DNA of 55,189 nt, taken from the IMG/VR virus record IMGVR_UViG_3300036859_000189, positions 1 through 55,189 of that record; one strand, 5' to 3'. Numbering within the stretch: position 1 is the first letter of the stretch; every line of letters starts with the position of its first letter. The DNA comes from a virus (Duplodnaviria; Caudoviricetes). Both the position numbers and the translations under genes were made by a program. Below are positions 14,834 through 55,189 of the stretch, one piece after another. Below the pieces are notes generated by a model. That model was not told where the DNA came from and did no database searches. It saw only the letters and a list, made by a program, of their open reading frames with translations.

Positions 14834-14878
14834 TCCAGACCCTTGTGAGCGTGACGAGATTGCTTTGTAGTTAGAATT

Positions 14879-20991: not shown

Positions 20992-21074
20992 AATTAGACA
21001 CTTGCATTATTCCCATGCTATGATTCCGATAACGGCTAGTCTCTTAGATGCACAAGTGTAGAAGTTATCTACAC

Positions 21075-24836: not shown

Positions 24837-25504
24837 ACTTTTGGGACAATCTTTTAGGCGACGATGACCATGCCGCAACCTATATGGAAAGCTATGGGGA
24901 GGGGCCAGGGTTTGAGCTGCGTCACCGTATTGGTGCTTTGATTAACGATGGCGAATCCGTGCTTGATGTAGGTTGTGGGCCTGGGTGGAATCTTGACCAC
25001 TTTCAAAGTTTTGGACCAAGCGTTGGCAAATATAGAGGGTTAGACTATTCAGAGAGGTTTGTCAGAGTAGCTAACGAGAGGTGGGTGGGCCGAGAGGCAT
25101 TCTTTGCCACGCACGTCGTAAATTATCAAGGGGAGAAGAATAATAATCTCTCCGATGCTCTTCCTCTGTTCCGTTTGGGCGACGTTCGTAATATCGAGGA
25201 GCCAGATAAGTCGTGGGATGTAGTCATTCTCCAAGACGTGCTTGAACACACTAATGGCTACAAACAGCCCATTCAAGAGGCGTTGCGAGTAGCCAAGAAG
25301 CGAGTCATTATTACTTTTTGGCACCTTGCCGACAGTGATTCTCCCCATATAAACGACGACGGTGACGACGGCTGGGGGGCTTGGTACGACAAACGTGAAT
25401 GGGAAAAGCACCTCGACTCTTTGGGGATTCATTGGCTGTTGGATGAAGCTGAGATCGGCAATCGAATCCGGCACATCTATGTACTTGATAAGGAGATCGA
25501 GTGA
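24833..25504 (+). CDS. Class I SAM methyltransferase
   Basis: VLDVGCGPG, GLDYS, DVLEH. Confidence 0.88.
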   Translation: MNFWDNLLGDDDHAATYMESYGEGPGFELRHRIGALINDGESVLDVGCGPGWNLDHFQSFGPSVGKYRGLDYSERFVRVANERWVGREAFFATHVVNYQGEKNNNLSDALPLFRLGDVRNIEEPDKSWDVVILQDVLEHTNGYKQPIQEALRVAKKRVIITFWHLADSDSPHINDDGDDGWGAWYDKREWEKHLDSLGIHWLLDEAEIGNRIRHIYVLDKEIE

Positions 25505-26202
25505 AAGATTTAATTATCGGTTTTGGTCAAATCGGCAAAGCAGTGCAAGAAGCTATTTGCTTTGATCAAGCAAAGACGTTAGATAGCACGGCGAAAGATA
25601 TTATGCCTGGGGTCAACGTTATGCATGTCTGTTTCCCATACTCAGACGATTTCATTTCACAAGTTACAGACTACATTAAGAGATTTCAGCCAGAGCACAT
25701 CGTCATATACTCAACCGTGCCGATTGGAACGTGCGGTGAGATAGACAGTCGTGTTGTACACTCACCAATCGAAGGTAACCATCCCAATCTGGATCTTAGC
25801 ATTCGCCACGCCAGGCGGTGGGTTGGCTACAACAACGAAGAAGAGGGTAGATTTTTCAAAACATACTATGCGAACAAAGGGTTAAGCTCGAAGCTTGTGC
25901 CGAGTACACATTTTACCGAAGCGCTGAAACTCCTCAGCACAACAGAATACGGTCTGAATATCGAGTTTGCCAGATACAAGAAGCACATAGCCGATGAACT
26001 TGGTATGACTTTCGACCTAACGAAGGAATGGAATCTGGACTACAACAAACTCTACAAGAATCTCGGGCTAGGGGACAGGTACCAAAAGTTCATTCTTGAT
26101 GCGCCCGAAGGGAGCAAGGGCGGGCACTGCGTCACGCCAAACGCCAGGCTGTTGTTTGAGCAGTATCCGGCTGAAATCTTACGAGAGGTTGCCGAGTTAT
26201 GA
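25501..26202 (+). CDS. Compact NDP-sugar (UDP-Glc/GDP-Man type) 6-dehydrogenase
   Basis: IIGFGQIG, STVPIGT, EALKL, GGHC catalytic Cys; lacks the C-terminal domain. Confidence 0.75.
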   Translation: MKDLIIGFGQIGKAVQEAICFDQAKTLDSTAKDIMPGVNVMHVCFPYSDDFISQVTDYIKRFQPEHIVIYSTVPIGTCGEIDSRVVHSPIEGNHPNLDLSIRHARRWVGYNNEEEGRFFKTYYANKGLSSKLVPSTHFTEALKLLSTTEYGLNIEFARYKKHIADELGMTFDLTKEWNLDYNKLYKNLGLGDRYQKFILDAPEGSKGGHCVTPNARLLFEQYPAEILREVAEL

Positions 26203-26774
26203 TTGTCTTCGACTCTGATGATTTTGGATGTGACCACGTTATTTCTGACATGTGCCAAAGCCATGATTGCCGCGATATTCTCCTAGAACTTAAGAATGCT
26301 AATCCAGCTTTTAAGGCTACCTTGTTTGCGATACCGGGAGAAATGACACCCGAACTAATCCTGTGGGCGGTTGCTAATAGGTCATGGATAGAACTTGCTG
26401 TACACGGTATTTTTCACAGGAGCAACTACGAGTGTGCAGGATTAACTGCTGAACAATTTAAGCAAGATATGGCGTTTGTAGAAGATGCTGGATTCATTAG
26501 GTTTTTCGCTAAAGGTTTCAAGGCACCAGGATGGCAGATAAGCGACGGCGTTTATCAGTGGCTTAAAAATAACGGCTGGTGGGTAGCCGACCAAGCCTAC
26601 AACGATGAACGCCGTCCGACAGACTTGCCTGTCTACAAGATTGGCGAGAATTCTATCCACACGCATACTTGGAATTGTGTCGGCAATGGGGTTTACGAGT
26701 TATACGATCAGCTTGTAGAGCAGGTAAAAGATGAGACTGATTTTAAGTTTGTTAGCGAGGTTGTGAATGCGTAA
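26199..26774 (+). CDS. Polysaccharide deacetylase-like (NodB fold)
   Basis: DSDD, HGIFH, FKAPGW, HTH residues. Confidence 0.7.
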   Translation: MIVFDSDDFGCDHVISDMCQSHDCRDILLELKNANPAFKATLFAIPGEMTPELILWAVANRSWIELAVHGIFHRSNYECAGLTAEQFKQDMAFVEDAGFIRFFAKGFKAPGWQISDGVYQWLKNNGWWVADQAYNDERRPTDLPVYKIGENSIHTHTWNCVGNGVYELYDQLVEQVKDETDFKFVSEVVNA

Positions 26775-27399
26775 CGATTGGTGGCACCAAGAATTCGCCA
26801 AAGGCTCTCCGGCCGCTCAGATGGGTGGCCCAGAAGGGCGGCAAGGCGTGGATCATGCGACCCATGAATGGTTTACCAAACACGTCCCAGAAGGCAGCTC
26901 TGTGCTGGACGTTGGCTGTTGCAACGCACACACCCTTGAGTCGTTCAAGAAAGCCGGCAAGAAGATTACTTACCACGGCGTTGACCAGCTCGACGGACTG
27001 GTCGCATATTGTTTGAGTACTTATCCCGATGCTGCTTTTTCACAGTCTGATGCCTCAGACTTACAGCAGTTTCAAGACAACTCGTTTGACTACGTTCTCT
27101 CCCGTCACGTAGCTGAGCACTTGAATCACTATTCTCAGCACTTTATGGAGATGTGGCGCGTAGCTAAAAAAGAAGTTGTGATTGTCGGGTTCCTAGAGTT
27201 CACGGGAACCGACTTTGACAGGTTGCAATATGGCGTCAAAGAGAATGGCAAACTTCTGGCCCATTGGTACAACCAGTACAGCCGCGCAGGAATAGAACGG
27301 TTCATCGCTTATAACATGCCGACGGCAAGCGTTGAGATCGTCGAGGACTACGAAGAAACCGGACACCCGATAATCATCATCAGAAAGGAACAGCCGTGA
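26767..27399 (+). CDS. Class I SAM methyltransferase
   Basis: VLDVGCC, FQDNSFDYV, HVAEH. Confidence 0.85.
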   Translation: MRNDWWHQEFAKGSPAAQMGGPEGRQGVDHATHEWFTKHVPEGSSVLDVGCCNAHTLESFKKAGKKITYHGVDQLDGLVAYCLSTYPDAAFSQSDASDLQQFQDNSFDYVLSRHVAEHLNHYSQHFMEMWRVAKKEVVIVGFLEFTGTDFDRLQYGVKENGKLLAHWYNQYSRAGIERFIAYNMPTASVEIVEDYEETGHPIIIIRKEQP

Positions 27400-28229
27400 G
27401 TTACAGCGTAGTCATACCAAGCCTTGCCAACGAGAAGACAAAGCCCTATCTAGAGCTTTGCGTTAAAAGCCTTCGAGAGAGCGGGTTCGATGGTCAGATC
27501 ATCGTAGTAACGAACGGTACTACTGCGCCGATCCCGTTACCGGAAATTGCCAACATGTGCGTGCGACTGCACACCCGCGATCAGGGACAATGCAACGCGG
27601 TCAATATCGGAGCGCAGATTGCAACAGGTGACTACCTGATGATTAGTAACGATGATATGTACTTCGCGCCTTACTGGGGTAATTATTTACGATTCGATGA
27701 TCCAGTATTTTCCCCGAATCTGGTAGAACCTACTGACAATGCCGGTTCCGCCCGGCCGTTTATGAAGCTCGATGGCGGGTTCACTATAGAAGCATTTGAT
27801 AAGGGTAAGGTTGACGAGTTCGTTGAGGAGTGGGGGTATAAGTTTAGCGGACGGGCTACGCCGATACGGGAAGAGCCAGGCTTTAACCTACCCTTTTTTA
27901 TAAAGAGAGACCTCTGGAATCTTCTAGGGGGGTACGATACCGCCTACGATCCCTGGGGGAGCAACAGTGACACCGATCTACAGACGCGTATAAACCTCGC
28001 GGGCGTTATACCGATGCGCCTTAGAGATGTTCTGGTCTATCACTTCTCAAATAAGTCTGGAACTTTTGACGGTACGCACCAGGACTTTTACCAGAACAAT
28101 CTCGAATACTTCAAAGATAAGTTCGGCTTTGACCGCGACGAACTAGGCTCGGATGTTTGGTACAACAAAGACATGATCCCAACTGATGAAAGCAAGATCA
28201 AATACCAGCATGAGAAGTACAATGGTTGA
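27396..28229 (+). CDS. GT2 glycosyltransferase
   Basis: SVVIPS, AVNIGA, ISNDD, LGGYD, VYH. Confidence 0.85.
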   Translation: MSYSVVIPSLANEKTKPYLELCVKSLRESGFDGQIIVVTNGTTAPIPLPEIANMCVRLHTRDQGQCNAVNIGAQIATGDYLMISNDDMYFAPYWGNYLRFDDPVFSPNLVEPTDNAGSARPFMKLDGGFTIEAFDKGKVDEFVEEWGYKFSGRATPIREEPGFNLPFFIKRDLWNLLGGYDTAYDPWGSNSDTDLQTRINLAGVIPMRLRDVLVYHFSNKSGTFDGTHQDFYQNNLEYFKDKFGFDRDELGSDVWYNKDMIPTDESKIKYQHEKYNG

Positions 28230-28719
28230 CCTTGAAGCATTAGATTTAAAAGCCAACCCTGGGGCATTCTCTACATTTGACATGGCCGTGCTGGTTCCAG
28301 AGGTAGAGAAACTAAAGTCAGGCCAACTATATCTAGAGATCGGGGTTGATAAAGGCAAGTCACTTTCAGTTGCCCGAATGGTCGCTAAGAAGGGGGTGAG
28401 AGTTTACGGCGTTGATCTGCGTGATAACCCACAAGTCCCGGATACCGTATTCATTCACGGCGACAGCACGAAGGTTGCATTTGCCGGCGAGATAGATGTT
28501 CTTTTTATCGACGGTGACCACTCTTATGAAGGTTGCAAAGCAGACATAGACGCTTGGTACCCAAATATGGCCGAGGGCGGCGTGATGCTCTTCCATGATT
28601 GCGATGAGTCGTCACCCGGGGTTGTCAAGGCGGTTAAAGAATTTGTGGAGAAATACGATCTTAAAGACGTTTACTATGATCCCAATCAACGTTGCAGCAT
28701 GGCGAGGATACGCCTGTGA
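28222..28719 (+). CDS. O-methyltransferase (Methyltransf_24-like)
   Basis: LEIGVDKGKS, LFIDGDHSYEG, GGVMLFHD. Confidence 0.85.
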   Translation: MVDLEALDLKANPGAFSTFDMAVLVPEVEKLKSGQLYLEIGVDKGKSLSVARMVAKKGVRVYGVDLRDNPQVPDTVFIHGDSTKVAFAGEIDVLFIDGDHSYEGCKADIDAWYPNMAEGGVMLFHDCDESSPGVVKAVKEFVEKYDLKDVYYDPNQRCSMARIRL

Positions 28720-29387
28720 AGGGCTTAACTTCGGTTATAGTCGTGGGGTACCATAAGACGGCCATATCAGCACACATGACGATGGCGTGTCTTGCGAACC
28801 TCACTAAATACACCGACACCGACGACTACGAATTGATCCTGATCGAAGACGTACCAGAGTTTAAAGTCCGTGATGACTACCATGTTCTGAAGATTGACAG
28901 ACACATCACCTTGGATGAATACACCAACTATTCAACGAAGATGAACCTCGCTGCTAAAGAGGCAAAAGGTGATGTTTTGTGCTTTGTGCAGAACGATGTT
29001 TTCGTGTGGGAGGGCTGGCTCGAAGGTTTGCGTTACTATCTAGATAATGGTCTAGGTGACGCTATTATCCCCGCGCAATTCCCCTGTACTCGTCAGCAAA
29101 TACTCGAATCCTATCAGACATCTATGGAAGAAGGACTCAACAAAGGCGCTCGGGATGCGTGCATGATTATGATTACACGGGATGCGTTTGACCGGACGGG
29201 GGGATTTGACGACAACCTACAAGCGTTTGTGGAGGCGGACTTTTACCAGCGCATGAGCGATAACGGCGTGAACCAGATCACAACTAACAAGGTCCAGGTT
29301 ACGCATCTTACGCTCGGCACGCACTACCAGGACATGAAAGCGTTTGACGAGAAAGTAGACCACGACTCAAGGATCAGGAACACATGA
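28716..29387 (+). CDS. GT2-like glycosyltransferase
   Basis: SVIVV, ELILIED, FVQND, TGGFD, EADF. Confidence 0.8.
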   Translation: MKGLTSVIVVGYHKTAISAHMTMACLANLTKYTDTDDYELILIEDVPEFKVRDDYHVLKIDRHITLDEYTNYSTKMNLAAKEAKGDVLCFVQNDVFVWEGWLEGLRYYLDNGLGDAIIPAQFPCTRQQILESYQTSMEEGLNKGARDACMIMITRDAFDRTGGFDDNLQAFVEADFYQRMSDNGVNQITTNKVQVTHLTLGTHYQDMKAFDEKVDHDSRIRNT

Positions 29388-30205
29388 AAAAGTACGTCTA
29401 TCTAATCACTGGAGGGTCGGGGTCTCTAGGTAAAGGGTTGTTAGAACGCATCAAAGACGCCAAAGAGATACGGATAATGTCCCGTAGCGAGACTGGACAA
29501 ATCCCCCTGAAGGCTAAGTACCCGCACGTTAAATTCATCTTGGGTGACGTTCGTGACCCCCAGGCAGTCAGAGATGCGGTCAGGGGCGTTGATATTGTTA
29601 TCCACGCAGCAGCGTTTAAGTTTCTCGACCTCGCGGAGTCCCAGGTGAGGGAGTGCGTGTTTACGAATGTTCTCGGGTCTCTGAATGTTATCGACGCGGT
29701 GAAGCAGGAACCAAGCGTGAAACTTTGTCTTGGAATCTCCACCGACAAGGTAGTCTACGCCCGAAACGTCTACGGCTGTACCAAGCATATTATGGAGAAG
29801 CTTTTCAAAGAGGCTGACACTCACTCCAAAACTAAATTCGCCTGTGTTCGCTATGGGAATGTGCTCGCTACAACCGGCTCGGTGCTAACTATCTGGGAGC
29901 GCCAGAAAGCCGAGGGGAAGGCTTTGACCATTACAGACAAGCGTATGCGTCGTTTCTTCTTTTCACTTGATGAAGCAATCGACCTTATCTTCTACGCAAT
30001 GAAACACACGAAAGGCGGTGAGGTGTTTGCGATCAAAATGCCTTCACGTTCGATTTACGAGATGGCGCAAGAAATCTCCGACGACATTATCGAAACTGGC
30101 TTGCGTCCTGGAGAGAAAATCTACGAGCATTTGGTAGGTGACTACGAAGGCGAGGAGTTCACTAGCGAAGAAAGTGGTAACAACGAAATCGTGGTATTAA
30201 GATGA
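29384..30205 (+). CDS. UDP-GlcNAc 4,6-dehydratase-like (PseB/CapD family)
   Basis: TGGSGSLG, HAAAFK, STDK, YGCTK, RYGNV, RPGEK. Confidence 0.88.
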   Translation: MKKYVYLITGGSGSLGKGLLERIKDAKEIRIMSRSETGQIPLKAKYPHVKFILGDVRDPQAVRDAVRGVDIVIHAAAFKFLDLAESQVRECVFTNVLGSLNVIDAVKQEPSVKLCLGISTDKVVYARNVYGCTKHIMEKLFKEADTHSKTKFACVRYGNVLATTGSVLTIWERQKAEGKALTITDKRMRRFFFSLDEAIDLIFYAMKHTKGGEVFAIKMPSRSIYEMAQEISDDIIETGLRPGEKIYEHLVGDYEGEEFTSEESGNNEIVVLR

Positions 30206-31098
30206 AGGCAATTATCTTCGGCAGCGAGGGGTTCGTCGGGAAACACTTAGGCGAATATCTCATCAATCAGGGCTGGGAAGCTAAGGGGTTTAATCTCCGT
30301 GGCGGGCAGAACATTCTTGATGCGGAACAAGTCCGCAACGTCCTGGATATTGAACGACCTGATGCGATCTTTCATCTCGCCGCGCAAGCGTACGTCCCTG
30401 AATCTTTTGTTAATCCGAAACGGGCTATCGAGGTTAACGTTCTCGGGTCACTGAACATCTTGGAAGCTGTCCGGCAACTCGGTATAAAACCGAAGATTCA
30501 CCTCGCAGGGACGAGCGAGGAGTACGGCGATTCTCTTTATGGTGATGGAGACACGACCGAAGAAACCCTACCAAACCCGCAGTCTCCGTATGCGATCTCA
30601 AAACTTGCGATGGACCATCTCGGACAGCTTTACGCTAAATCCTATGGACTGCATATTGTTGTTACCCGGGCCTTCAACCACACCGGACCAAGCAGAGGCG
30701 AGATGTACGCTGAGTCCTCATGGGCTAAACAGATTGCGGAGATTGAGTTAGGCAGAAGGGTTGTCTTGGAGCACGGCAATCTTGAGTCAGTGAGAAACTA
30801 CACCGATGTAAGAGACATTGTCCGAGCTTACAGCCTGGCGATTGATCTACCGTCGGGCGTATATAACATCTGCTCTGACCAAAACGTAAGTATGCATGAT
30901 GTGCTCGACACTCTGATCGATCTCTCCCCGAACCCCATCCCGACTAAAACAAACAAGGCGTTATATCGGCCGGCAGATTTTAGCTTTAAGACGCCCTCAT
31001 GCGAGAGGTTTGTAGGTCTGACTAGCTGGAGCCCGGAAATACCGCTGGCTACTACGCTGAAGGATCTCCTGGAATACTGGCGGGGGAGGCTAGCGTGA
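30202..31098 (+). CDS. GDP-sugar SDR (Gmd/Rmd-like dehydratase or reductase)
   Basis: GSEGFVG, HLAAQAYV, SEEYG, PYAISK, RAFNHTGP, GNL..RNYTDVRD. Confidence 0.85.
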   Translation: MKAIIFGSEGFVGKHLGEYLINQGWEAKGFNLRGGQNILDAEQVRNVLDIERPDAIFHLAAQAYVPESFVNPKRAIEVNVLGSLNILEAVRQLGIKPKIHLAGTSEEYGDSLYGDGDTTEETLPNPQSPYAISKLAMDHLGQLYAKSYGLHIVVTRAFNHTGPSRGEMYAESSWAKQIAEIELGRRVVLEHGNLESVRNYTDVRDIVRAYSLAIDLPSGVYNICSDQNVSMHDVLDTLIDLSPNPIPTKTNKALYRPADFSFKTPSCERFVGLTSWSPEIPLATTLKDLLEYWRGRLA

Positions 31099-32009
31099 AG
31101 ATATTATTTCTTGGAAACTTCCTCAGCCCGTCTTGGGACGGTAGTATTCCAGACGAGGAGCATATTGCTTCTGCGTTGGAGCAGTTAGGACATAACGTCC
31201 GGAGATGGCAACGTGATGGAGTGGTCCCTGCCCCAGCCGAGATAGAGTTTAGCCCTGATTTCATTCTTATTGCTCAATGGGATGGCTATGGTGATATGCA
31301 GATTGGTATCGTCAAAGAGTTCAGAAAACCCGTCATCTACTGGGCCTTCGATCACCAAGCCGACGGCCAGGATTGGCATGAGCGGCTGATCGAGGCATCT
31401 GATCTCTATCTGAGCAAGCGCATCGCTGATAGCAAATACCCGAACTGGCAATGGCTGTCGCAGGACTTTGCCCCAGAATTTCTCGATAAGTATCCTGAGC
31501 GTATCGAGAAAGATATCGATGTCTTGTTCACGGGCACATATCTGCCTTGGGCAACTGATCGCAACAAGATTCTAAAAGCGGTGGACGAGAAGTTTAACTT
31601 GACCATCCACTCCGTAAATCCTGACGAGTGGAAAGTCCAAGGATTCAAGAACGTCCACGGACCGGTTATGGACGATGCGTTACCCGCGCTGGTAGCCCGT
31701 GCGCGGATTAATCTTTCTATTGACCATACGCTAGAAGCGGGTTACTGGTCTGACCGCAACGCTCAGATTATGGCTTGTGGCGGGCTCGTAATGTTTAAGT
31801 ATGTCCCGTTATCCAAGAGCATCTTCAAAGATCATATTGTTTACTTCAAAGACGTTGAGGATTGTTTGTGGCGGTTGGGACAATTACTCGAACGTCCGCA
31901 AGAAGATTTAGACTCAGTTGCCGAAGGGGGATACAGATATGCGCACGAGTACATGATGGTTGGGGATAGAGTGAAAGATTTGTTAACGATTGTGGATGAC
32001 TACTTATGA
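31095..32009 (+). CDS. CgeB-like GT-B glycosyltransferase
   Basis: DVLFTG, INLSI, YWSDR..IMACGG. Confidence 0.75.
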   Translation: MKILFLGNFLSPSWDGSIPDEEHIASALEQLGHNVRRWQRDGVVPAPAEIEFSPDFILIAQWDGYGDMQIGIVKEFRKPVIYWAFDHQADGQDWHERLIEASDLYLSKRIADSKYPNWQWLSQDFAPEFLDKYPERIEKDIDVLFTGTYLPWATDRNKILKAVDEKFNLTIHSVNPDEWKVQGFKNVHGPVMDDALPALVARARINLSIDHTLEAGYWSDRNAQIMACGGLVMFKYVPLSKSIFKDHIVYFKDVEDCLWRLGQLLERPQEDLDSVAEGGYRYAHEYMMVGDRVKDLLTIVDDYL

Positions 32010-32986
32010 AGATAGCTCTATTCGATCCGTACGGCGGCAAATTCACCGACGGTATGCAGAAGTGGTGGCGGGAGCATGGCTACGAAGTCGAGTACCAGCG
32101 ATACTACAACCCTCAGATCGCTGAACAAGCGGATGTCCTATGGTTCGAAACCACCGATAATAATATCGCTTCAGCCACCAACCCAGGCCAAGCGATCTTG
32201 GCGGATGACGCAAACTACAAACCCTGGGATTTGCACGATATGGATATGTCGAATAAGAAGGTGATTGTCCGTGCTATCGACATCGAAGTCTGGCAAGGGC
32301 ATTTCGCGGCTGCTCACTGGGACTTAGTGGACGATCTTATCTTCATAGCCCCGCATGTCAGGACATTAGTTGACCCTGATGCTTTGCCGTTGGTTACAGA
32401 AAAACTAAAGCTTCACACGATTCCTTGCGCTGTCGATCTAGACAAGTGGACGTTCAAAGAACGCGGCCCAGGCTTCGACATAGCCGTGATTTCCGAAAAG
32501 TGGACATCGAAGGGGACCGATCTTATCCTCCAAATTGCTCTCAAACTTAAACAATTTGACGAACGCTATAAGATCCACTGGCTAGGCCAACGGAGTGATT
32601 ACCCCTGGGAGTATGCATACTTCGATGAATTTGTGGAGCATCACAACTTAAACATCGAATTTACGAATATCTTGAATGACGGATCGACGGTTGACGACTT
32701 TCTGGAGGGAAAAAACTTTCTACTCCACGCGTCGCATAAAGAAGGCTTTTCTTACGCTACGGCTGAAGCGATGGCAAAAGGAATCAAACCAGTTATTCAC
32801 CGTTTCTTCGGGGCTGATGATTTGTGGGGGAGCCTGACGTGGAGTTCTATCGACGAAGCAATCGAGAAGATTGTGATCGGAGAGTACGACTCCCACAGCT
32901 ACCGGCAGTTTTTAATCAATCACGGCTATGTAATTCCTGACATGATGGAAGCGATAGATAAAGTAATAAAAGGAGAGTCAAGATGA
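32006..32986 (+). CDS. GT4-like glycosyltransferase
   Basis: KGTD, SHKEGFSYATAEAMAKG. Confidence 0.8.
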   Translation: MKIALFDPYGGKFTDGMQKWWREHGYEVEYQRYYNPQIAEQADVLWFETTDNNIASATNPGQAILADDANYKPWDLHDMDMSNKKVIVRAIDIEVWQGHFAAAHWDLVDDLIFIAPHVRTLVDPDALPLVTEKLKLHTIPCAVDLDKWTFKERGPGFDIAVISEKWTSKGTDLILQIALKLKQFDERYKIHWLGQRSDYPWEYAYFDEFVEHHNLNIEFTNILNDGSTVDDFLEGKNFLLHASHKEGFSYATAEAMAKGIKPVIHRFFGADDLWGSLTWSSIDEAIEKIVIGEYDSHSYRQFLINHGYVIPDMMEAIDKVIKGESR

Positions 32987-33321
32987 CCAGAGAAGAAGCA
33001 CATAAGTTAGTTGACGAATTATTCGATTCTAAAGAAAAGCAGCCTGCCTTAACAGCGGAAGACATAGTTACTCCAGCATCAGCAGCCAACGAGCCAGACC
33101 CAAAACCCGAGCCATCAAAAGACAAGCGCGCGGTCCGTACTAAGTCAAGCGGCGACAGGGTTTACTTACTTGACGAGACGAAGAAAACCCGTCAGTGGGT
33201 CACGAATCCGACGGTTCTAAAAAATCTTGGCTTTGAGCTGCCCGATGTCAAAGAGATAGACGATGCCGAGATGCTGAAGTATCAAATGGCACCTGCCCTC
33301 TACCGAGTAGAAAATGGATAG
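32983..33321 (+). CDS. Hypothetical protein
   Basis: AAGGAG RBS, coupled. Confidence 0.65.
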   Translation: MTREEAHKLVDELFDSKEKQPALTAEDIVTPASAANEPDPKPEPSKDKRAVRTKSSGDRVYLLDETKKTRQWVTNPTVLKNLGFELPDVKEIDDAEMLKYQMAPALYRVENG

Positions 33322-34267
33322 ACCGAAACTCAATACATTCATAATTCCGATCCTGCGTACTGATCTGATCGAGCGGTGCTTGGAGACGCTTTACCGGTAC
33401 ACGGAACCGAACTTCTACGTGTTTGTTATCGATCAGTCGATTGAGGGTCTGGACCCAGAACTCAGGGACAAGTACAAGAATCTGATGGTCATCCGAACAC
33501 CGAAAAGTGATCTCCACTACACGGGGAACCTCGGCCATAGCCAGGCCACGAACTTAGGAGTTCAACTCGCACAGACGCCCTACGTGACGTTCCTGAATGA
33601 TGACGTTGAGTTTGTCTCGAAGAAATGGTGGCAAGGTGTCCTCGATACGTTCGAGAAGGTAGAGACAGCCACACCTACTCGGCCGGCGTTACTCATCAAT
33701 GTAGGCTCGATAAAGCTTCCTGATTGGTCTGTTGGGAAACCGAAGGGGGAGGACCACTACATCCTGCCTTACAAGGACGAATACACAGATGCGGACTGGG
33801 ATTTTTTGGTCAACGAAGAACATTACGTTAACGAACATCTGACAATTCAACCAGGTTCTATTATTGATGGTATCAATCTCTACTGTTCGGTTGTCGACAC
33901 TAAACGTCTGCTGGAAGTTGGACTGATTGATGAGTTCTGGTATCCGGGCAACTTCAATGATTATGACCTCTGTTGTCGAGCCAGTATGTTCGGCTATCGC
34001 TGCGTTGGGACGACTCTATCCTGGGTTTTTCATCATTGGAGCCAGACCTTTGAAAGCGCAGATCAGGTCAGTCTATTGGTTCAAGACGAACTGAAGCACT
34101 TCAACGAACGAGAGAAGTGGGGAGATCGTTTCGAACTCTGGGGCGTGCGCTGCTCGAAGGAAGGTTGTGACGAGATCATGCACACCAAAGACGGCGTGAA
34201 GGCAACTTGCCCAAAGCATCCTGAAGAAGTCTACGCTATGCCAGAGAATACGATCGAACCGCTCTAG
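33314..34267 (+). CDS. GT2 glycosyltransferase
   Basis: FIIP, VIDQS, NLGV, FLNDD, NDYDL, VFH. Confidence 0.82.
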   Translation: MDRPKLNTFIIPILRTDLIERCLETLYRYTEPNFYVFVIDQSIEGLDPELRDKYKNLMVIRTPKSDLHYTGNLGHSQATNLGVQLAQTPYVTFLNDDVEFVSKKWWQGVLDTFEKVETATPTRPALLINVGSIKLPDWSVGKPKGEDHYILPYKDEYTDADWDFLVNEEHYVNEHLTIQPGSIIDGINLYCSVVDTKRLLEVGLIDEFWYPGNFNDYDLCCRASMFGYRCVGTTLSWVFHHWSQTFESADQVSLLVQDELKHFNEREKWGDRFELWGVRCSKEGCDEIMHTKDGVKATCPKHPEEVYAMPENTIEPL

Positions 34268-36109: not shown

Positions 36110-36315
36110 AAGACATTAAACCCGTTAGCAAGCTGAAGAACCAACCACTGACCTCTAGCCCGCAAGCCGGGTATCCTTCGGCGATTATGGACGATACTGT
36201 TTACACGATGGACGACAGCCGAGTGCTCATGGGAGGGGAGGTCAGCACAGCCTCAAGTGTCAAGGGGCGTATCAAAACAGTGAAGCCCTCCAGCACCATC
36301 CGGCCGTATCGTTAA
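36106..36315 (+). CDS. Small hypothetical protein
   Basis: ATGA overlap, AAGGA RBS. Confidence 0.55.
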   Translation: MKDIKPVSKLKNQPLTSSPQAGYPSAIMDDTVYTMDDSRVLMGGEVSTASSVKGRIKTVKPSSTIRPYR

Positions 36316-36362
36316 CGCCCCAGACCCTTGTAGGGTCTCTTGGGTTGTCATTAGCTAAAGAT

Positions 36363-42035: not shown

Positions 42036-42082
42036 GAGCCAGACCCTTGTAGCCTCTTGAAATCTGTCCACATAATGTGGAT

Positions 42083-48572: not shown

Positions 48573-49231
48573 TGCAGGCTCCTAGCTCAAACAGAATCAC
48601 CCAAACCGCCCACGGCCCATACAACGCGGTCGATTATTCTTACACCCCAGATATAGACTTCTATGCCCCAGAGGACGGCAAGGTTGTTTTCTATCAAGAA
48701 TCTGGAAGCTGTGGGAACAACCTCCAACTTTTAGGCAAGACTGGTCGACACGGCTTCTGTCACCTTGAGACGGCTTATGTGAAGGTCGGGGACCAAGTGA
48801 AGCGCGGCCAACGTTTGGGGAAGATGGGCTACACGGGCTACACCGAGCCCAAAGGTCCAAATGGGAGGCATTTGCATTGGGTGCTTCAACTTCCAAACGG
48901 GATTTACGCATACCCACCGGACTTTATTAACGAAGCTTTCAACCAAAAGGAGGAAGACATGATAGACGACGCTGGAGCAAGAGAACTTTTAACGTTAAGT
49001 GGGATTCTCGCCCAACCTGGAGACAAACCGGACAGACAGCCTACGTTAGAGGAAATCAAGAACCTCATTGGGAAATCTTACCCCCAAGCAATGAGAGAAG
49101 TCCGTCAATACCAACCCTGGAAGAATAATCTAGCGAAGATCAAATACTACGACGCGGACATCGAGACGGCCCGGAAGCAAACCATCAACCGGGATACCGC
49201 ACTGGCTTATCTAACCAATAACTTGAAGTAA
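48569..49231 (+). CDS. M23 peptidase endolysin
   Basis: AVDY..APEDGKV, CHL, VKVGDQVKRGQ, HLHW. Confidence 0.85.
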   Translation: MMQAPSSNRITQTAHGPYNAVDYSYTPDIDFYAPEDGKVVFYQESGSCGNNLQLLGKTGRHGFCHLETAYVKVGDQVKRGQRLGKMGYTGYTEPKGPNGRHLHWVLQLPNGIYAYPPDFINEAFNQKEEDMIDDAGARELLTLSGILAQPGDKPDRQPTLEEIKNLIGKSYPQAMREVRQYQPWKNNLAKIKYYDADIETARKQTINRDTALAYLTNNLK

Positions 49232-49317
49232 GGAGGTTAGCGTATGACCGAAATAACAATAATTCAGTAGGAAAGTTTGTACCTTAACATCACGGGCAAG
49301 TTTAGTAAGGAAAAGTC

Positions 49318-49692
49318 ATGAAGCAGAAAGTAAAGTTAGTATTCGCACGAAGTTACGTAGAAAACCCGACTAGCAACGATTGTTTTGCGGAGACAATCCA
49401 TATCGAGTTGCCAAGTCACATAAAACAAGCACATCTAATCTCAGCTCGCAGCTATCAGCCGGAAGAGATGAAAGACTCTCACACGCTCGGTGGCGACGAC
49501 ACTGCGACGATTTGGGATTACCACGATGAGCAACATCTCGTAGGAAAACTGCTCACCTATATAGATGCGACCTATTCAGACAAAGAGCAGCGGCAGGCCC
49601 ATAAAGACATCTTGAAAGATGTTGTGTATGGGTACTTCCAAGAATTGAGAACGCGTGCCATACAAACCGTGAAGGCCTATCCAGATAAGTAA
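49318..49692 (+). CDS. Hypothetical protein flanked by 24-bp inverted repeats
   Basis: IRs at 49277-49300 and 49704-49727. Confidence 0.65.
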   Translation: MKQKVKLVFARSYVENPTSNDCFAETIHIELPSHIKQAHLISARSYQPEEMKDSHTLGGDDTATIWDYHDEQHLVGKLLTYIDATYSDKEQRQAHKDILKDVVYGYFQELRTRAIQTVKAYPDK

Positions 49693-49745
49693 ACATTAAC
49701 CACCTTGCCCGTGGTGCTAGGGTACAACCTAGAGAAGGAGGATAT

Positions 49746-49925
49746 ATGGACATACCAAAACTCTACGCAGAGTATAAAAAGGCTTTTATGGCCGCTCTCG
49801 CTGCCGCAGGTGTGATTTCAGCCGCTTTAGCGGACTGGAGCCTCACGACGGAAGAAGGCGCTGCAATCGGCGCTGCGTTGGTCGGAGTGTATCTTGTTTG
49901 GAAAGCTAGAAACGAGGTTCTATGA
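49746..49925 (+). CDS. Two-TM holin-like protein (not in ORF track)
   Basis: AGGAGG RBS; KAFMAALAAAG...ALVGVYLV. Confidence 0.7.
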   Translation: MDIPKLYAEYKKAFMAALAAAGVISAALADWSLTTEEGAAIGAALVGVYLVWKARNEVL

Positions 49926-50086
49926 GTGTATCAGCACTACTAATCGGATTGTTTCTGGTAATGTACGGTGTCACCTCGCTTCACTGGGTGACTATCTCAG
50001 CTGAAGTCCTGGGATTGGTGGCTTTTATCGCCGGACTCGCCGTCTTGTTTGAGGGCGCGGTGGTAAAACTCGTGAAACGAGATTGA
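49922..50086 (+). CDS. Two-TM small protein (not in ORF track)
   Basis: ATGA overlap; 54 aa, hydrophobic. Confidence 0.6.
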   Translation: MSVSALLIGLFLVMYGVTSLHWVTISAEVLGLVAFIAGLAVLFEGAVVKLVKRD

Positions 50087-50539
50087 GATTTAGCCTGAAA
50101 TAAACTATAATGAGCTTTCTGTAAGAGAGTCTGTACTGGCAAGTGGAGGCTCTTTTACTTTTTACTTGACATTCTCATCCATCTTTGATTAGATACTTAT
50201 CTACTTACCTTGATTGGCCTCGGAACACATGTTTCGGGGCTCTTTGAGTTCCTAACAAAGAAAATACCAATACAAACAACGGACTGCTTACGAACGTGCC
50301 AAGCGTTTGCTTAAAAGGTCGGTGAAAGCCGGTGGCACATCTTGGCGCTTTTACTAAGCAGTTCGCAGTAGGGGAGAGCCATTTGAAGGCCAGACATCCT
50401 CTGGTAAAGCGAGAGATCTAGCAACGCCCCCTGATTTCTTCATGGTTTTGTAACGATTTTCAATCGCTTCACGTTCAACTCCGCTGGTATCGGTAAAGAG
50501 GGATTGTAATAGCTTCTAGAAGTAGAAGAAGGGGAGGTT

Positions 50540-50773
50540 ATGGCAAAAAAACAGTATACAGAGAAAGATTACGCTGTATACGAGCAAAATATGTTCTGGG
50601 CAAAGCAAGCCTATCGTCAGTACGAGCTTTTGGAGAGGCGTGCCAGCAAGCAGGTTAACAACAAGCCTGTGAGAAGCATGACCCCAGAGGACACTAAGCT
50701 GATTAAGGAGAAACACCTCTGGTATGATCGGTGGCAGACACACCTGCGGATAGCAAACAGCGTCCTAGAGTAA
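50540..50773 (+). CDS. Small basic protein
   Basis: GGAGG RBS; followed by two hairpin/T-run elements (50809-50892). Confidence 0.65.
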   Translation: MAKKQYTEKDYAVYEQNMFWAKQAYRQYELLERRASKQVNNKPVRSMTPEDTKLIKEKHLWYDRWQTHLRIANSVLE

Positions 50774-51097
50774 CACAATCTTAAATAAACATTAAACAAC
50801 AGGTGGACAATCGGAACATACGCTTAACAGACACGTTCCGATTTTTTAGAAAGTAACAACAGGGGTGACGCGAGAAACGCTCATCCTTTTTTAGTAGGAG
50901 AAAACAGAGTTGCTTAGACGACCAACTAGATGTATTACAGGTATAGCCACTTATATAACAGAGGTTAACCTTTACAGACTGTTATGCGTAGCGAACCAAT
51001 CAAAGAAGGTTCGTAGAATGGGCTCCCTTGAAAGTCGCCTACCTACGAACCTGGCCTCATATAATACAGACCCCGAAGCAAAAATCAAGGGGGTAGT

Positions 51098-51940
51098 ATG
51101 ACTATCTCTGAAGCGTTTGATTTATACATCTTTGAGGGGATCAAGCTCCAGGGAGGAGCGCAGAAAACCCAAGCGAACTATGTCACGGCTAAAGCATCGA
51201 TCCTCCAGGCCGTCGGGGACATACCAATTGCTTTAGTTTCTCTAGATCACGTCACTCGCTGGAAGTTATATATGGACTCCCGGGGGAATCAGGTTAACAC
51301 CATCAAAGGTAACCTCGGTAGATTGAGAAGTATCCTCGCGTTCCTTAAGGTTCGGGGGATTGCGGTCATGGACTACCGGGACATCACCTTACCTAAGGTC
51401 GAGAGAAAGGGCATCCAGCCTTTAGATTACAAGGAAGTCCAACAGATTATCGACGTCGCTTCCAACCCGAGGGATAAAGCAATCGTAGCGTGTTTGTTTT
51501 CTACGGGATGCAGAATATCCGAGCTTTTGAACTTAAACAGGGGTGAGATTATAGACGGAGCAGCGAGAGTCATGGGGAAAGGGAGTAAGATCCGTCCAGT
51601 GTACTTTGACAAGACCTCCCTAGAGCTTCTAGGAGCCTATTTAAACAGCCGGAAGGACAAGCTGCCTCCGCTTTTCATCTCAGGTCAGTATCGCCGTCTG
51701 ACGGTCTCCAGGGTGGAGCAGATTCTTCATGTCTTAGCGAGTGAAGCCGGGATTGAAAAGAACGTCACGCCGCACGTCTTCAGGCATTCGACTATCACGG
51801 ACTACATCAAGAACGGGGCTGATATGTATGCGGTTCAGAAGATCGCCGGCCATGCCAGTATTCAAACGACCTTAAATATTTACACCCACGTTTCGGACAA
51901 GTACACTAAAGAAGCATTCGAAAAGTTCCATTCGCGTTGA
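51098..51940 (+). CDS. int: Tyrosine integrase
   Basis: TGCRISE, GKGSKIR, HVFRH, AGH, IY catalytic motifs; adjacent to att. Confidence 0.95.
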   Translation: MTISEAFDLYIFEGIKLQGGAQKTQANYVTAKASILQAVGDIPIALVSLDHVTRWKLYMDSRGNQVNTIKGNLGRLRSILAFLKVRGIAVMDYRDITLPKVERKGIQPLDYKEVQQIIDVASNPRDKAIVACLFSTGCRISELLNLNRGEIIDGAARVMGKGSKIRPVYFDKTSLELLGAYLNSRKDKLPPLFISGQYRRLTVSRVEQILHVLASEAGIEKNVTPHVFRHSTITDYIKNGADMYAVQKIAGHASIQTTLNIYTHVSDKYTKEAFEKFHSR

Positions 51941-51985
51941 CAAACATATAGGCTCATGCTAAACTGTGTTTAGTTCTTTAAAAAC
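51937..51985 (+). promoter_or_regulatory. Sigma70 promoter plus boxA-like element facing att
   Basis: TTGACA (51937)-N17-TAAACT (51960) with extended TG; GTTCTTTAAAAA at 51973. Confidence 0.7.
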
Positions 51986-52099
51986 CTAAAAGACACCACT
52001 TGCCGAACGAATTTATACCTATCCAAGTGGCGGGACCAAATCACCTCTGATGATTCGGTAATCGCATTCGCAGGTTCGAATCCTGCACCCCCAGCCAAT
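51973..52099 (+). repeat. Right att copy (attR)
   Basis: Identical to 1-127; lies 32 bp after the integrase stop; host-type genes follow. Confidence 0.9.
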
Positions 52100-52167
52100 T
52101 TCTCGACTAGCGCTCTGAAATCTCTTGAATATCAGCCTGTATTTTCTTGTTAGCCGAATACTCTCCG

Positions 52168-54180
52168 TCAAATATAATCTGCAGCAGAACCTGCTTTGAA
52201 TCTGATGAACTCGATTTTATGAAATCGTTCATTACTCCTTCGTGCATTTTTGTACCAGGTTTCTTCGATAGTTAGTCCTGAAGCGGTTAGGGTTCTCATA
52301 TTTGGGTAGGGCATGGGGCCACTGTCAGTGTGGGTTCTTTCGACAGCTGCCTTTTCCTGATTCGGGCGTTCACCACCAAGCAGGTTGTATAGTTCATCTA
52401 ACAGCTCTAGCCACGCTTCCGTCTCACTCATCTCAGGGCTGAGCTCTACTGCACAGTCCTTATAATCACCTGTGCTCACAACACTATCTACAAGTCGCGC
52501 GAAGATCCGGCAGTCATCTCCCTCACCCAACTTACTTGCTATGGTACTGATAGGGCCAATATCCACGTCCCTTCCGAACCTGGAAAGACAGGAAGCCAGC
52601 TTCACGAGTGCTCTGCTTATAATTTCCGCATGCCTAGCTTCTGCCGAGTCCACTGAGCTCCCATGTTCATCATCGCTGCGCTTCACTTGCTTAGCTACTG
52701 TCCTTATAACATTGCCCAGGAATTCCCGTGAGTCCGGAGTGGTTCCGATGTTGTGTCCTGCCGGCAATCGAAACACCGTGATGCCCGGTCCTATGTCTCG
52801 GGGATCGTGTGCATCTCTATAAGCGAGACGGCCCAAAAAGCTTTTTCCAATAACTTTCCAGTAACTTTCGGCAAACCCAGGGGGAGTTATTAAGTCATAC
52901 GTACCGAGAAGATCCACAACCGAAACTCCAGTGGCAAGCAAGTTTGCCGTAACCCGGTAGGTGCTACGGTCACGCCAGTCTTTGCCATCGAAGCCCCATT
53001 TTGGATATGCTTGAACGATCCCGCCATAACCGCCCTCAGGGATAGCTTCCTCGGGGAAACCGAGATCCGCAAAGTATCGCTCAATAATTCCTTTCAGGAT
53101 TCGCTCCCGCTCGTCAACGACGGGTTCAATCCTAACGGTATCCGATTTTGGGAGAGCTATACGGCCGTCGAGCGTACTAACAACTTGTTTTTTGTCATTG
53201 AGCAAGTTTTCAGTAAAGGACTTGACGTCTACTTGCAGATTCTCCTCGAACAATCCACGCGGCAGGCCAGTATAGCGCTCCAGCCTGCTGACAATCTCCT
53301 CGCGCTCTGCTGCTGACAGTGCGTGTGGACGAGCAAGAGCGTCCGTATATATGCCATTCGCAAATTCGCGCACTTCATCAAAAAGCTCGTCAGCTGGCAT
53401 AGTCTGTTCACGCTCTCCTAGACGCTCATGATACTTTGCCGTGGCTGCGAGGGACGGCAAAGGCAAAGCATACAGCCTCGGATCTTCCGGGTGGCCTATG
53501 CCACGTTGTTCTTTGCTCGCACCTGGTTGCAGAACGTTTGCTGCGTAGTCATTGAGAGGATTGATTCGCACCAGACCGACAGACTTACCGCGCTCGGCTA
53601 ATAAACGAGCGGCTTCACTACTTCGAAAGGTCGAATACGAGGACATAGCAAAGACAACTGGATTATCTTCTAGTCCGTTGATTGATAGGTATGTTTCGAC
53701 AAAAGCGCTAAAGGCCTGGGCATCGCGCTTGACGCTATAGTAGTGTTCCGGGTCTTTGCTACGTCCATAGCCAGTATCAGGGGCGTCGTAATAGACCAAG
53801 CGCGCCACAGGAAGAGGTGTAAACTCATTTGGAACCAAGTGTGGACGGTCAGATAATCGTCCATCGGCATGATACTCAACAACCATGGGACCAGTCCTGT
53901 TTATACCAGCCTGCGCCGGGGAAATCGGCCCACCTGGACATTCGAATACGACTACTCTTGAAGAATCGGCAACTTCAGCGATATCAAAGGCAGCAAAGCT
54001 TGCCGTAGCGCGAGATTCGGGTTGCCGGAGGTGATACGTAGTGTCTGATAATTGCACCATTCCAACTGTTGCTGCATAACCCAGGCCGTCTGGTAAACGA
54101 CGACCGGATTCGACTGTTTCAGTAATCTCTGCTGTAACGTTAAGCAGGTATCCTCTTGATATCTCTCCTGGAAAAGCCAT
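52168..54180 (-). CDS. Host S10 serine carboxypeptidase-like protein (divergent)
   Basis: PGGP, DAPDTGY, SSYS (vs GESYG), TLDGR, YDLITP, AGH. Confidence 0.7.
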   Translation of the reverse strand: MAFPGEISRGYLLNVTAEITETVESGRRLPDGLGYAATVGMVQLSDTTYHLRQPESRATASFAAFDIAEVADSSRVVVFECPGGPISPAQAGINRTGPMVVEYHADGRLSDRPHLVPNEFTPLPVARLVYYDAPDTGYGRSKDPEHYYSVKRDAQAFSAFVETYLSINGLEDNPVVFAMSSYSTFRSSEAARLLAERGKSVGLVRINPLNDYAANVLQPGASKEQRGIGHPEDPRLYALPLPSLAATAKYHERLGEREQTMPADELFDEVREFANGIYTDALARPHALSAAEREEIVSRLERYTGLPRGLFEENLQVDVKSFTENLLNDKKQVVSTLDGRIALPKSDTVRIEPVVDERERILKGIIERYFADLGFPEEAIPEGGYGGIVQAYPKWGFDGKDWRDRSTYRVTANLLATGVSVVDLLGTYDLITPPGFAESYWKVIGKSFLGRLAYRDAHDPRDIGPGITVFRLPAGHNIGTTPDSREFLGNVIRTVAKQVKRSDDEHGSSVDSAEARHAEIISRALVKLASCLSRFGRDVDIGPISTIASKLGEGDDCRIFARLVDSVVSTGDYKDCAVELSPEMSETEAWLELLDELYNLLGGERPNQEKAAVERTHTDSGPMPYPNMRTLTASGLTIEETWYKNARRSNERFHKIEFIRFKAGSAADYI

Positions 54181-54231
54181 AAGACAGATAGTATAAGATT
54201 ATGGCCCAGCATGGAAACAATGAACCGATCG

Positions 54232-54274
54232 TTTGGTCCGGCATTCGGGAGTTCGAGTCTCTCCGCCCCAGCCA
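54232..54274 (+). pseudogene. Second tRNA-Gln(TTG)-like 3' fragment
   Basis: TTTGGT-CCGG-CATTC-GGGAG-TTCGAGT-CTCTC-CGCCCCA-GCCA; no pairing 5' half. Confidence 0.6.
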
Positions 54275-54414
54275 TGCAAGAGAAGAGCTATTCTGCTGCC
54301 AGCTCTTAGGTTCTAGAAAATGCGGCAAAAGTGACCAAGGACAAATAGGTTGCAAACGAGATGTGATATTGCTAGGATACAATTTGTTAACGATAAACAA
54401 AAAAGGAGAGAGAA

Positions 54415-54570
54415 ATGGCAAAACCATCCTTCGTAGGAACTTCAGGCGGCCGGAGCGCTAGCTCAATGCCAAATGCCAAGTCAACTGCAGGCAAGACTAA
54501 GGCCGCAGCTAATCAGGCATCCGCCAAGGCAAAAGCTGCTGCAGCCAAAGCAAAGGGTAAGAGCAAGTAA
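54415..54570 (+). CDS. 51-aa Ala/Lys-rich basic peptide (not in ORF track)
   Basis: TTGCAA-N17-TAGGAT promoter (54350-54378), AAGGAG RBS, downstream hairpin. Confidence 0.65.
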   Translation: MAKPSFVGTSGGRSASSMPNAKSTAGKTKAAANQASAKAKAAAAKAKGKSK

Positions 54571-54668
54571 TTCCTCGAACTTTACAGCTATAGAGGAGCC
54601 CAACATTGTTTAATGAAGGGCTTCTTTTAGTTGTAGAATAAGTCAGATGGATAGGGTTGCAAAATAAC

Positions 54669-55189
54669 ATGGCACACACAAACAACTACTTCGATAATAA
54701 GTCTCTTGCACGAAAGCAGTGGATGAAAGAGAACTTCCGGGCTTCGTGGCTTAAACTGACGGTCGGTGTGGTGTTTTCGCTGATTTCAGTCGGTTTGCAG
54801 CTACTCAACCCTTGGCCCTTAAAGATATTAATCGATTCAGTCTTTGGTAAAGTTCCGGCGCCAGGTTTTTTGCGCGCTTTTACTGGCACCTATACCTTAC
54901 TTGTCATCGTGGCCATCAGCTATGTCAGCTTGTATATAATCAGTGGCCTGTTAGACATCATAGATAGCTATCTCACGACATGGTTTACCAATCAACTCAG
55001 CATCAAATTGCAGACAGCGTTTTTCTATCACATCATCAATTTGCCAGAGGAAACACGGCGAAAAATCGAGAGCGGTGATTACGTCTACCGTCTGAACGAG
55101 CAGGCAGACAACCTGCCAGTGCTCATATTTAGTACTGCGGCTTCGGCACTGGCGAGTGTATTTACTATCGTGGCAGCGATTGTCATTTT
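54669..55189 (+). CDS. ABC exporter, N-terminal TM domain (runs off the window)
   Basis: LQLLNPWPLKILIDSVF, SGDYVYRLN. Confidence 0.8.
   Translation, partial: MAHTNNYFDNKSLARKQWMKENFRASWLKLTVGVVFSLISVGLQLLNPWPLKILIDSVFGKVPAPGFLRAFTGTYTLLVIVAISYVSLYIISGLLDIIDSYLTTWFTNQLSIKLQTAFFYHIINLPEETRRKIESGDYVYRLNEQADNLPVLIFSTAASALASVFTIVAAIVI

Follow-up and report, generated by a model that had tools for sequence, protein, structure and literature searches.

The window, by which we mean the whole stretch of 55,189 nucleotides from an IMG/VR virus record analysed here, is the circular genome of a temperate soil phage (51,972 bp) that was opened in the P arm of its attachment site attP and fused to one host arm. 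For the early operon of this phage we consider it close to an even chance, falling slightly short of one, that it is split by attP and is read through only in the circle, in a manner resembling Tn916. Comparison with related phages supports the core of this idea, the attP-split operon. Sequence features, their conservation and their complementarities were observed; each step of transcription described below is predicted from them.

In the proposed switch, transcripts from the promoter P_att at the end of the integrase gene (int) would carry a boxA-type word first, then the 36-bp tRNA-Gln core, and would run into the P' arm. Behind the terminators located there, a long untranslated stretch and early genes predicted to lack a sigma70-like promoter of their own would follow. 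The terminators would be passed through pairing of the leader with the terminator left arms. Some assistance may come from a boxA/Nus complex, chiefly by counteracting Rho along the untranslated stretch. P_att transcripts would reach the early genes solely in the circular or concatemeric form. Integration would sever the operon between leader and terminators; the phage terminators would then close the restored host tRNA gene and keep its transcription out of the prophage. Small antisense RNAs from upstream of int probably provide a lock at the RNA level on transcripts that pass the terminators.

Window identity, att core and gene layout

Bases 1-127 of the window are an exact 127-nt duplicate of 51973-52099, and the two sequences part at the next base. 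The initial annotation had taken 1-127 for the left att copy. This was wrong: the contigs of the probable source run, with their 36-nt shared unit, identify the repeat as an assembly overlap. We placed contigs of the probable source run on positions 49000-55189 and compared depths and junctions. A phage contig of 47 kb (depth 67) terminates inside the 127-nt repeat, while a 4.4-kb contig (depth 62) begins in it and runs on as window 128 onward. The shared unitig comprises 36 nt (52064-52099, depth 74). A host left-arm contig with a depth of 8.2 meets the phage arm at 52064, and in its unmatched part the tRNA-Gln(UUG) anticodon arm can be read. On the other side, the host flank (52070-55144, depth 9.3) departs to the right after 52099. 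Since the phage contigs were thus about 7 times deeper (62-67) than both host arms (8-9), the window must consist of the circular phage genome plus one host arm, and the attP form must have been present in the sample. The evidence for the circle is the 1-128 junction together with the depth. The 127-nt repeat is the overlap left by an assembler that went once round the circle and exited via attR; 127 is presumably the largest k of the usual metaSPAdes setting.

The following features define the recombination site and its surroundings:

52064-52099 (same DNA as 92-127), + strand: true att core, over whose 36 bp phage and host agree completely (the 36-nt shared unitig)
52100-55189, no strand assigned: host flank (B' arm), with a minus-strand open reading frame of 670 aa and the beginning of an ABC transporter gene
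51098-51940, + strand: tyrosine integrase of 280 aa, XerC/D-sized (Pfam Phage_integrase, 7.7e-33; PHROG integrase)
198-1121, + strand: untranslated stretch of about 920 nt from the terminators to the first early open reading frame, holding no credible open reading frame

Because the host arm joins at 52064 and the shared unit is 36 nt long, the true identity between attP and attB amounts to 36 bp. With the core starting at 52064, window 1-91 and 51973-52063 are one and the same piece of the P arm, and the edge of att does not lie at the boxA-like word described below. This P-arm DNA adjoins 128 onward in attP only. The core, which sits in non-coding DNA past the int stop, corresponds to the 3' part of tRNA-Gln(UUG) through the CCA (52095-52097) plus 2 nt, and over its final 35 nt the repeat matches, base for base, the 3' part of a tRNA-Gln(UUG) gene in a metagenome-assembled genome (MAG). 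ARAGORN and Rfam, the latter run with gathering as well as E-value cut-offs, found neither a whole tRNA nor a tmRNA in the window, and no described RNA family at the site; only the last 36 nt are tRNA-Gln, which does not make a cloverleaf. We had also considered the repeat as a tmRNA 3' end and dropped this assignment, as the repeat end matches the tRNA-Gln 3' part instead. The junction of core and host flank gave no match in the metagenomes searched. In the flank, the 670-aa reading frame is an orphan, and for the ABC transporter fragment a relative at 80% was found.

The integrase has 1637 homologues at E<=1e-20, one of which stems from a Candidatus Saccharimonadales MAG. All credible genes, which span 1122-51940, lie on the + strand, bearing out the earlier claim that all phage genes share this orientation. 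The untranslated stretch contains inverted repeats that form three long hairpins (522-628, 632-765 and 876-956), and no Rfam family was detected in 1-1600. The early region also carries an 8-copy motif, with its first copy at 820-849, which could represent independent promoters of another kind.

The promoter at attP and its conservation

The stop codon of the integrase gene (TGA) falls within the -35 hexamer of the putative promoter P_att, which is followed closely by a boxA-like word:

51937-51965, + strand: P_att, TTGACA-N17-TGcTAAACT, sigma70-type with extended -10; start predicted near 51972
51973-51984 (same DNA as 1-12), + strand: boxA-like word GTTCTTTAAAAA, perfect match to GYTCTTTAANA

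P_att consists of TTGACA (51937-51942), a 17-nt spacer, the extending TG (51957-51958) and TAAACT (51960-51965), and a gap of 7 nt (51966-51972) separates its -10 element from GTTCTTTAAAAA. All these elements, as initially described, are present in the sequence. The hexamers score 10/12 against the sigma70 consensus, on the assumption that sigma70 and boxA rules apply in the host. In the whole window 8 promoter matches of at least 10/12 were seen vs 7.1 expected; with the TG there were 2 vs 0.41 expected, and 32% of simulated windows contained at least one. By itself, the score of P_att is thus within chance, and we take the promoter as real because of its conservation in relatives.

To find such relatives, we used an alignment of 36 integrase homologues, which recovered 36 viral loci. 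A perfect -35 element with 17-nt spacing follows int in 8 of the 36 (L004, L005, L006, L007, L009, L011, L016 and L018). These loci share the architecture of the window and represent 7 phages, L007 and L009 being the attR and the attP form of one phage. Their integrases are 30-53% identical. As the spacers are unrelated between the phages, the P_att hexamers are under selection. In all 8 loci int is followed by TTGACA, exactly 17 nt, TAnnnT, then 7-25 nt and the leader, which opens with GTTC or contains a TTAACAAT-type word. After another 100-150 nt comes the 3' portion of a tRNA, either tRNA-Gln or a different one, up to and including its CCA, and then, where the locus reaches further, an intrinsic terminator. 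The overall gene order in the relatives is M23 peptidase and holin (lysis), int, P_att/attP, tRNA fragment, terminator and early genes, and the genes past attP (YqaJ, NinG, HNH, KGG) are mostly on the + strand. The initial proposal that promoter and boxA-like leader are separated by att from the terminators and early genes, and are directed towards them from the side of int, is upheld by this order, which is kept in the 7 related phages.

Other searches added little to this set. Single-protein and exact-DNA searches of viral contigs yielded no relatives, a search with the P-arm pattern returned L005 and L006 only, and a metagenome scan with the integrase alignment returned distant integrases only (28-44%). 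Among 80 metagenome integrases, 6 were followed by TTGAC[AT]-N16-18-TAnnnT; we rejected these loci as examples of the same architecture, at least 2 of them preceding whole tRNA genes.

Within the window, no sigma70-like promoter was found on the + strand of 1-2400. This range includes 200-1590, where a strong independent early promoter had been named as the finding that would speak against the switch. In L004, L005, L006, L007, L009, L011 and L018 there was likewise no further + strand match of at least 10/12 downstream of P_att, and L016 has one other, about 660 nt downstream.

The boxA-like word was compared with the gamma-proteobacterial consensus GYTCTTTAANA, as given in the accessible part of a published account (PMC5725501). 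Its section GTTCTTTAAAA fits this consensus perfectly, and GYTCTTTRAMAA is the sole exact site in the window. In the portions of the literature available to us the consensus words for E. coli and B. subtilis are UGCUCUUUAACA and AUGAUCUUUGAAA. The relatives have boxA-like words at the same place with 1-3 mismatches. The Nus/boxA complex is described, in the available sections of the same account (PMC5725501), as preventing Rho-dependent termination, not termination at strong intrinsic sites. Of the antitermination by boxA that was initially suggested, the perfect consensus word stands; it is doubtful that boxA alone would carry RNA polymerase past two strong intrinsic terminators. Pairing between the leader RNA and the terminators is the better-supported candidate for this task.

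Leader pairing, candidate small RNAs and alternative readings

The elements that may take part in such pairing are:

141-196, + strand: terminators T1 and T2, intrinsic, phage-borne, in the P' arm (141-165 plus T run; 174-191 plus T run)
51999-52009 (same DNA as 27-37), + strand: leader segment CTTGCCGAACG, complementary to T1 (left arm and loop)
52027-52035 (same DNA as 55-63), + strand: leader segment GTGGCGGGA, complementary to T2 (left arm)

Both terminators, like those of the relatives, have a G+C-rich hairpin and a T run. The initial annotation was thus right about two terminators (given as 143-195) but not about the left att copy that they were thought to follow. A terminator occupies the same place in each related locus that reaches past the CCA (L004 ends there). 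The GTGGCGGGA segment belongs to a degenerate copy of a T arm within the P arm.

In the minimum free energy fold of 1-200 (z = -4.1), leader positions 27-37 are paired with 144-156, i.e. with the left arm and loop of T1, and the freed right arm of T1 pairs with the left arm of T2. Folds of the growing transcript retain the pairing of the leader with the T1 left arm. The predicted probability of the T1 hairpin is 0.285 with the leader vs 0.963 without it, and values as low were reached in 2 of 100 shuffles. For the leader-T1 duplex itself the test in the window was not significant (p 0.09-0.34). The left arm of T2 gave p 0.004-0.033 vs 0.75 for its right arm, and it is the best leader-pairing 20-nt window after the CCA.

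The leader sequences differ between the relatives, each being complementary to the left arm of its own terminator. With 1000 shuffles, p values of.031 (L005),.001 (L006),.002 (L009),.022 (L011) and.004 (L016) were obtained. Their Fisher combination is 1.2e-7, a value to be read knowing that the target windows were fixed after some pairings had been seen by eye and that only six attP-form phages, which share ancestry, entered the pairing tests. The best pairing window was the terminator left arm in 5/5 attP-form relatives, and its pairing energy exceeded that of the right arm by 3-10 kcal/mol. No pairing signal came from two controls in the attR form, whose terminators belong to the host (p.63 and.84).

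Upstream of int, the gap at 50083-50250 reads as two promoter-hairpin units:

50083-50163, + strand: candidate small RNA 1, TTGAGA-N17-TATAAT; hairpin 50121-50158 followed by T5
50166-50250, + strand: candidate small RNA 2, TTGACA (50166-50171) and a weak TG-extended -10; start near 50202; hairpin 50216-50241
199-222, + strand: target site directly past T2, reverse complement (23/24) of 50202-50225

The first 24 nt of candidate small RNA 2 pair with 199-222. Complements between the region upstream of int and the region behind the terminator were also found in L005 (22 nt), L009 (24 nt), L011 (26 nt) and L016 (28 nt at 82%). Shuffled sequences were as good in 0/200 cases for the window, L005, L009 and L011, and in 4/200 for L016. 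L006 has no such complement (130/200 shuffles as good) and instead carries segments complementary to the antiterminator blocks of its leader. In L005, L009, L011 and L016 the complementary left arm begins 3-8 nt after a -10 element, which is TG-extended in three of them, and in L005, L009 and L016 a terminator-like hairpin with a T run, read from sequence and fold, follows 50-90 nt later. Candidate small RNA 1 presents a loop, GGCAAGTGG, complementary to CCACTTGCC in the leader (51996-52004); this 9-nt match alone is near chance, and the L006 equivalents are 16 and 14 nt. Extended complementarity to the early leader over 22-28 nt, as in small RNAs of the P4 CI or P1 c4 type, is thus found for candidate units. 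No Rfam family was detected in 49700-51100 at E<=5 save two chance-level rows.

A rather unlikely alternative is that P_att makes a discrete RNA, some 190-225 nt long and terminated at T1/T2, and that the early genes are started elsewhere. The unit would derive from a phage tRNA-Gln gene with a stable-RNA promoter and a boxA-type leader, with attP in its 3' part, and the RNA would be a relic or have a function of its own as decoy, regulator or tRNA-like molecule. The company this kind of promoter keeps agrees with such an origin. The pattern TTGACA-N17-TAnnnT-N6-9-GTTCWTTMAMA, run on viral contigs, matched at least 120 of them, many clearly related to one another. Among the 122 matches listed, 78 have a tRNA within 140 nt downstream, and these listed cases comprise 41 tRNA-Gln(UUG), 15 tRNA-Leu(UAG) and 9 tRNA-Glu; of the remaining matches listed some are tmRNA-like and some lie ahead of open reading frames. 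Promoter and leader are thus of the type used by stable-RNA genes in many phages, which fits a role of boxA in protecting untranslated RNA and equally feeds the notion of a tRNA-gene remnant. So do the degenerate T-arm copy in the P arm and an RNAalifold consensus of five sequences, a tRNA-like fold without D arm that has one compensatory pair in an acceptor-like stem. Furthermore, the terminators of the relatives stay favoured at equilibrium: even with the real leader the hairpin is dominant (P 0.89-0.96), an outcome that also counts against the leader pairing proposed above.

A discrete RNA accounts less well for the other observations. ARAGORN found no tRNA in the window or in the 16 relatives scanned, and the promoter has been kept perfect despite loss of the 5' half of the tRNA. 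It is the left arms of the terminators, not the right arms, that the leader complements. A conserved antisense target lies just past the terminator, where it would be meaningful only if transcripts get there, which argues against transcription ending at T1/T2. Finally, no other sigma70-like promoter was found for the early genes on the + strand of 1-2400 or, except in L016, downstream of P_att in the related loci.

Transcription across attP could also control int rather than the early genes, by a sib-like retroregulation, which we consider improbable. Transcripts from upstream of int would pair 199-222 with their own 5' end (50202-50225) and be cut or destabilised, in the attP form only. The 22-28-nt complements do bridge int and attP at conserved places with different sequences in 5 of 6 phages, and L006, L009 and L016 have further complements just upstream of the int start. 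However, the left arm starts at a promoter in four relatives, three of which have the terminator-like hairpin and T run within about 90 nt, suggesting a separate small RNA instead of an int mRNA. The conserved P_att would also be left unexplained. Control of int can be compatible with the attP-split operon.

The split operon was initially put forward as a switch free of any repressor, and the failure to recognise a cI-like gene was confirmed by searches with profile models, which revealed no protein repressor in the window and four relatives. Pfam gave no repressor match at E<=0.01 among 138 + strand and 20 of the 135 minus-strand open reading frames, PHROGs gave none at E<=0.001 among 71 open reading frames, and none was recognised among 78 open reading frames of four relatives. 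At a relaxed cut-off the open reading frame 7257-7712 (P0143) shows a weak helix-turn-helix (HTH) signal (YdaS 0.013, Cro 0.032, HTH_3 0.067). It has 5 homologues and an AlphaFold model with a mean pLDDT of 58, for which Foldseek, a PDB sequence search and the protein atlas returned no usable match. Because of this reading frame and of the candidate antisense RNAs conserved upstream of int, the label repressor-free is not supported.

The same findings bear on the simplest form of the switch, in which the phage lacks every kind of repressor and RNA polymerase gets through both terminators by boxA/Nus loading alone. The perfect boxA consensus 7 nt past the -10 and the negative repressor searches agree with it. 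Considering the conserved small transcription units complementary to the early leader, the weak HTH signal, the poorer boxA matches of the relatives and the Nus complexes, which the accessible literature describes chiefly as acting against Rho, we regard it as very unlikely. It is just as hard to credit that the complementarities are DNA sites, either inverted repeats for Int or accessory proteins or the ends of a movable int-attP cassette, with P_att as a read-out promoter without lytic role: the repeats flank the recombination module and core-like repeats occur in the P arm, but the sequences are wholly different between phages with 45-53% identical integrases, one partner is always a terminator arm or the first bases of a promoter-terminator unit, and Pfam detects no arm-binding domain in the 280-aa integrases.

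Known systems and implications

The closest known system to the attP-split operon is Tn916 with its promoter Porf7, antiterminator canT and terminator T1. According to the sections available to us of the study in which this switch was shown by experiment (Wirachman and Grossman 2024, PMC11658703), canT is a 452-bp processive antiterminator RNA and T1 an insulator terminator. Expression is coupled to excision there, since promoter and antiterminator become connected to the genes in the circle alone. As far as this account extends, Tn916 resembles the phage in having its main promoter and a cis-acting antiterminator at one end and its genes behind a terminator at the other, and in a terminator that shields the integrated element from host read-through. 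The window has the corresponding layout of int, P_att, core, T1/T2 and early genes, joined in the circle. Unlike Tn916, the element here is a tailed phage integrating in a tRNA gene, and its terminators also finish the rebuilt tRNA. Whereas canT is a long RNA, the antiterminator proposed from sequence here would consist of a boxA-type word and a few short stretches of the leader able to pair with the terminator arm.

In lambda, int is subject to retroregulation by sib, a local hairpin on the far side of attP. The phage shares with it a regulatory RNA element across attP from int and a transcript content altered by integration, but here the pairing partners are 1.5-2.2 kb apart or meet in trans, and attP also separates int from the early genes.

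With the boxA of rrn operons and lambdoid nut sites, as described in the accessible parts of PMC5725501 and PMC13753749, the leader has in common an 11-12-nt word early in an untranslated transcript. In contrast to these, neither boxB nor an N-like protein was recognised here, and the word would sit at +1 to +12, counted from a start site that is predicted only, rather than tens of bases downstream. The CI RNA of P4 is processed from the operon it controls, in the available portion of its description (PMC4825925). In both cases a small RNA has complementarity to sites on the early leader and no protein repressor is evident, and by analogy the candidate RNAs may halt early transcription; unlike the CI RNA so described, the candidate RNAs have predicted promoters and terminators of their own upstream of int. 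In mycobacteriophage BPs, the accessible text of PMC4557955 places attP inside the repressor gene and reports integration-dependent immunity. There, too, the position of attP makes gene expression integration-dependent, but the phage is not of this type: its attP is part of an untranslated leader, with the promoter on one side and the terminators on the other.

Beyond the single genome, we regard it as possible, though doubtful, that a clade of temperate phages, perhaps of small-genome soil bacteria, keeps lysogeny without a protein repressor by means of an attP-split operon, an rRNA/tRNA-style boxA leader that disarms the tRNA terminators of the phage and permits early transcription solely from the excised circle, and antisense RNAs that catch read-through and maybe give immunity. 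If true, the Tn916 insulator/antiterminator switch would have its first counterpart in a phage, built entirely from RNA elements around a tRNA att site, and a mechanism proven only in a conjugative transposon would extend to tailed phages. BoxA-type leaders would gain a role in stable-RNA and early transcription of phages, and the elements, being short, could serve as compact excision-sensing switches. The lysis-lysogeny state would be held in DNA topology, with the early genes disconnected upon integration and reconnected upon excision. The place of cI-type repressors would be taken by RNA structures and antisense RNAs, which would explain many uncultivated temperate phages that carry no recognisable repressor.

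Complementary sequences across int and attP

Long-range complementary sequences were found to span the region from the integrase gene (int) to attP, and this arrangement was conserved between the window and four loci of related phages that had been found via integrase homologues:

Complementary sites bridging int and attP
Window: 50083-50250, 199-222, 50996-51010
L005: pair 4544-4565/6098-6119
L009: pair 4351-4374/6150-6173
L011: pair 3297-3322/5011-5036
L016: pair 3915-3942/6166-6193

The RNA directly beyond the terminator of the P' arm, i.e. the side of the attP core that is distal to int, is complementary to the 5' ends of small promoter-terminator units located 5' of int. Additional complements lie immediately 5' of the int start in L009 and L016 as well as in L006, a further related locus. 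In the P arm, on the int side, the tRNA T-arm/core sequence occurs a second time in degenerate form, approximately 40 nt 5' of the real core (52029-52044 vs 52068-52083); such a copy was also seen in the P arm of L006. Behind the P' terminators, 920 nt (198-1121) are non-coding and contain three long hairpins, one of them with a perfect 20-bp stem (522-541/609-628). This stretch may constitute an origin or a structured leader.

Promoter-boxA leaders in other phages

At least 120 phage contigs (L120-L239) possess a consensus promoter that is immediately followed by GTTCTTTAAAAA-type boxA words. The genes behind these elements encode tRNA, tmRNA-like and other products, with tRNA-Gln UUG accounting for 41 of 122 among the matches listed.

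Motifs and genes of the early and late regions

An CCAGACCCTTGT motif is repeated directly 5' of the terminase, portal, baseplate and another late gene (13251-13289, 14826-14846, 36311-36349, 42039-42068, also about 11840) and may be a late regulatory element. Within the structural region, approximately 13 kb (21048-34267) hold glycosyltransferase, methyltransferase and sugar-nucleotide epimerase/dehydratase genes.

In the early region a PNKP-type phosphatase adjoins an RlaP-like nucleotidyltransferase (6095-7151), which looks like an RNA-repair pair in a tRNA-integrating phage. ORF 4286-5278 is made up of an 18-nt period repeated about 29 times (YdcK beta-solenoid/bactofilin-like repeats). 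Residues 50-80 of the early ORF 7257-7712 (152 aa) weakly match a helix-turn-helix of the Cro/YdaS/HTH_3 type; for this ORF, a search of 1.8 billion representatives returned only 5 homologues. A further motif, GCGAACCAC-N9-13-GCGnGAACTAGCCC, occurs in 8 copies in the window, most of them 20-60 nt 5' of early genes:

Copies of the early motif
820-849
5493-5529
5970-6000
7199-7228
7630-7660
8045-8074
9122-9151
11780-11809

This motif does not resemble a sigma70-type promoter, and its copies may represent phage-specific promoters or operator sites.
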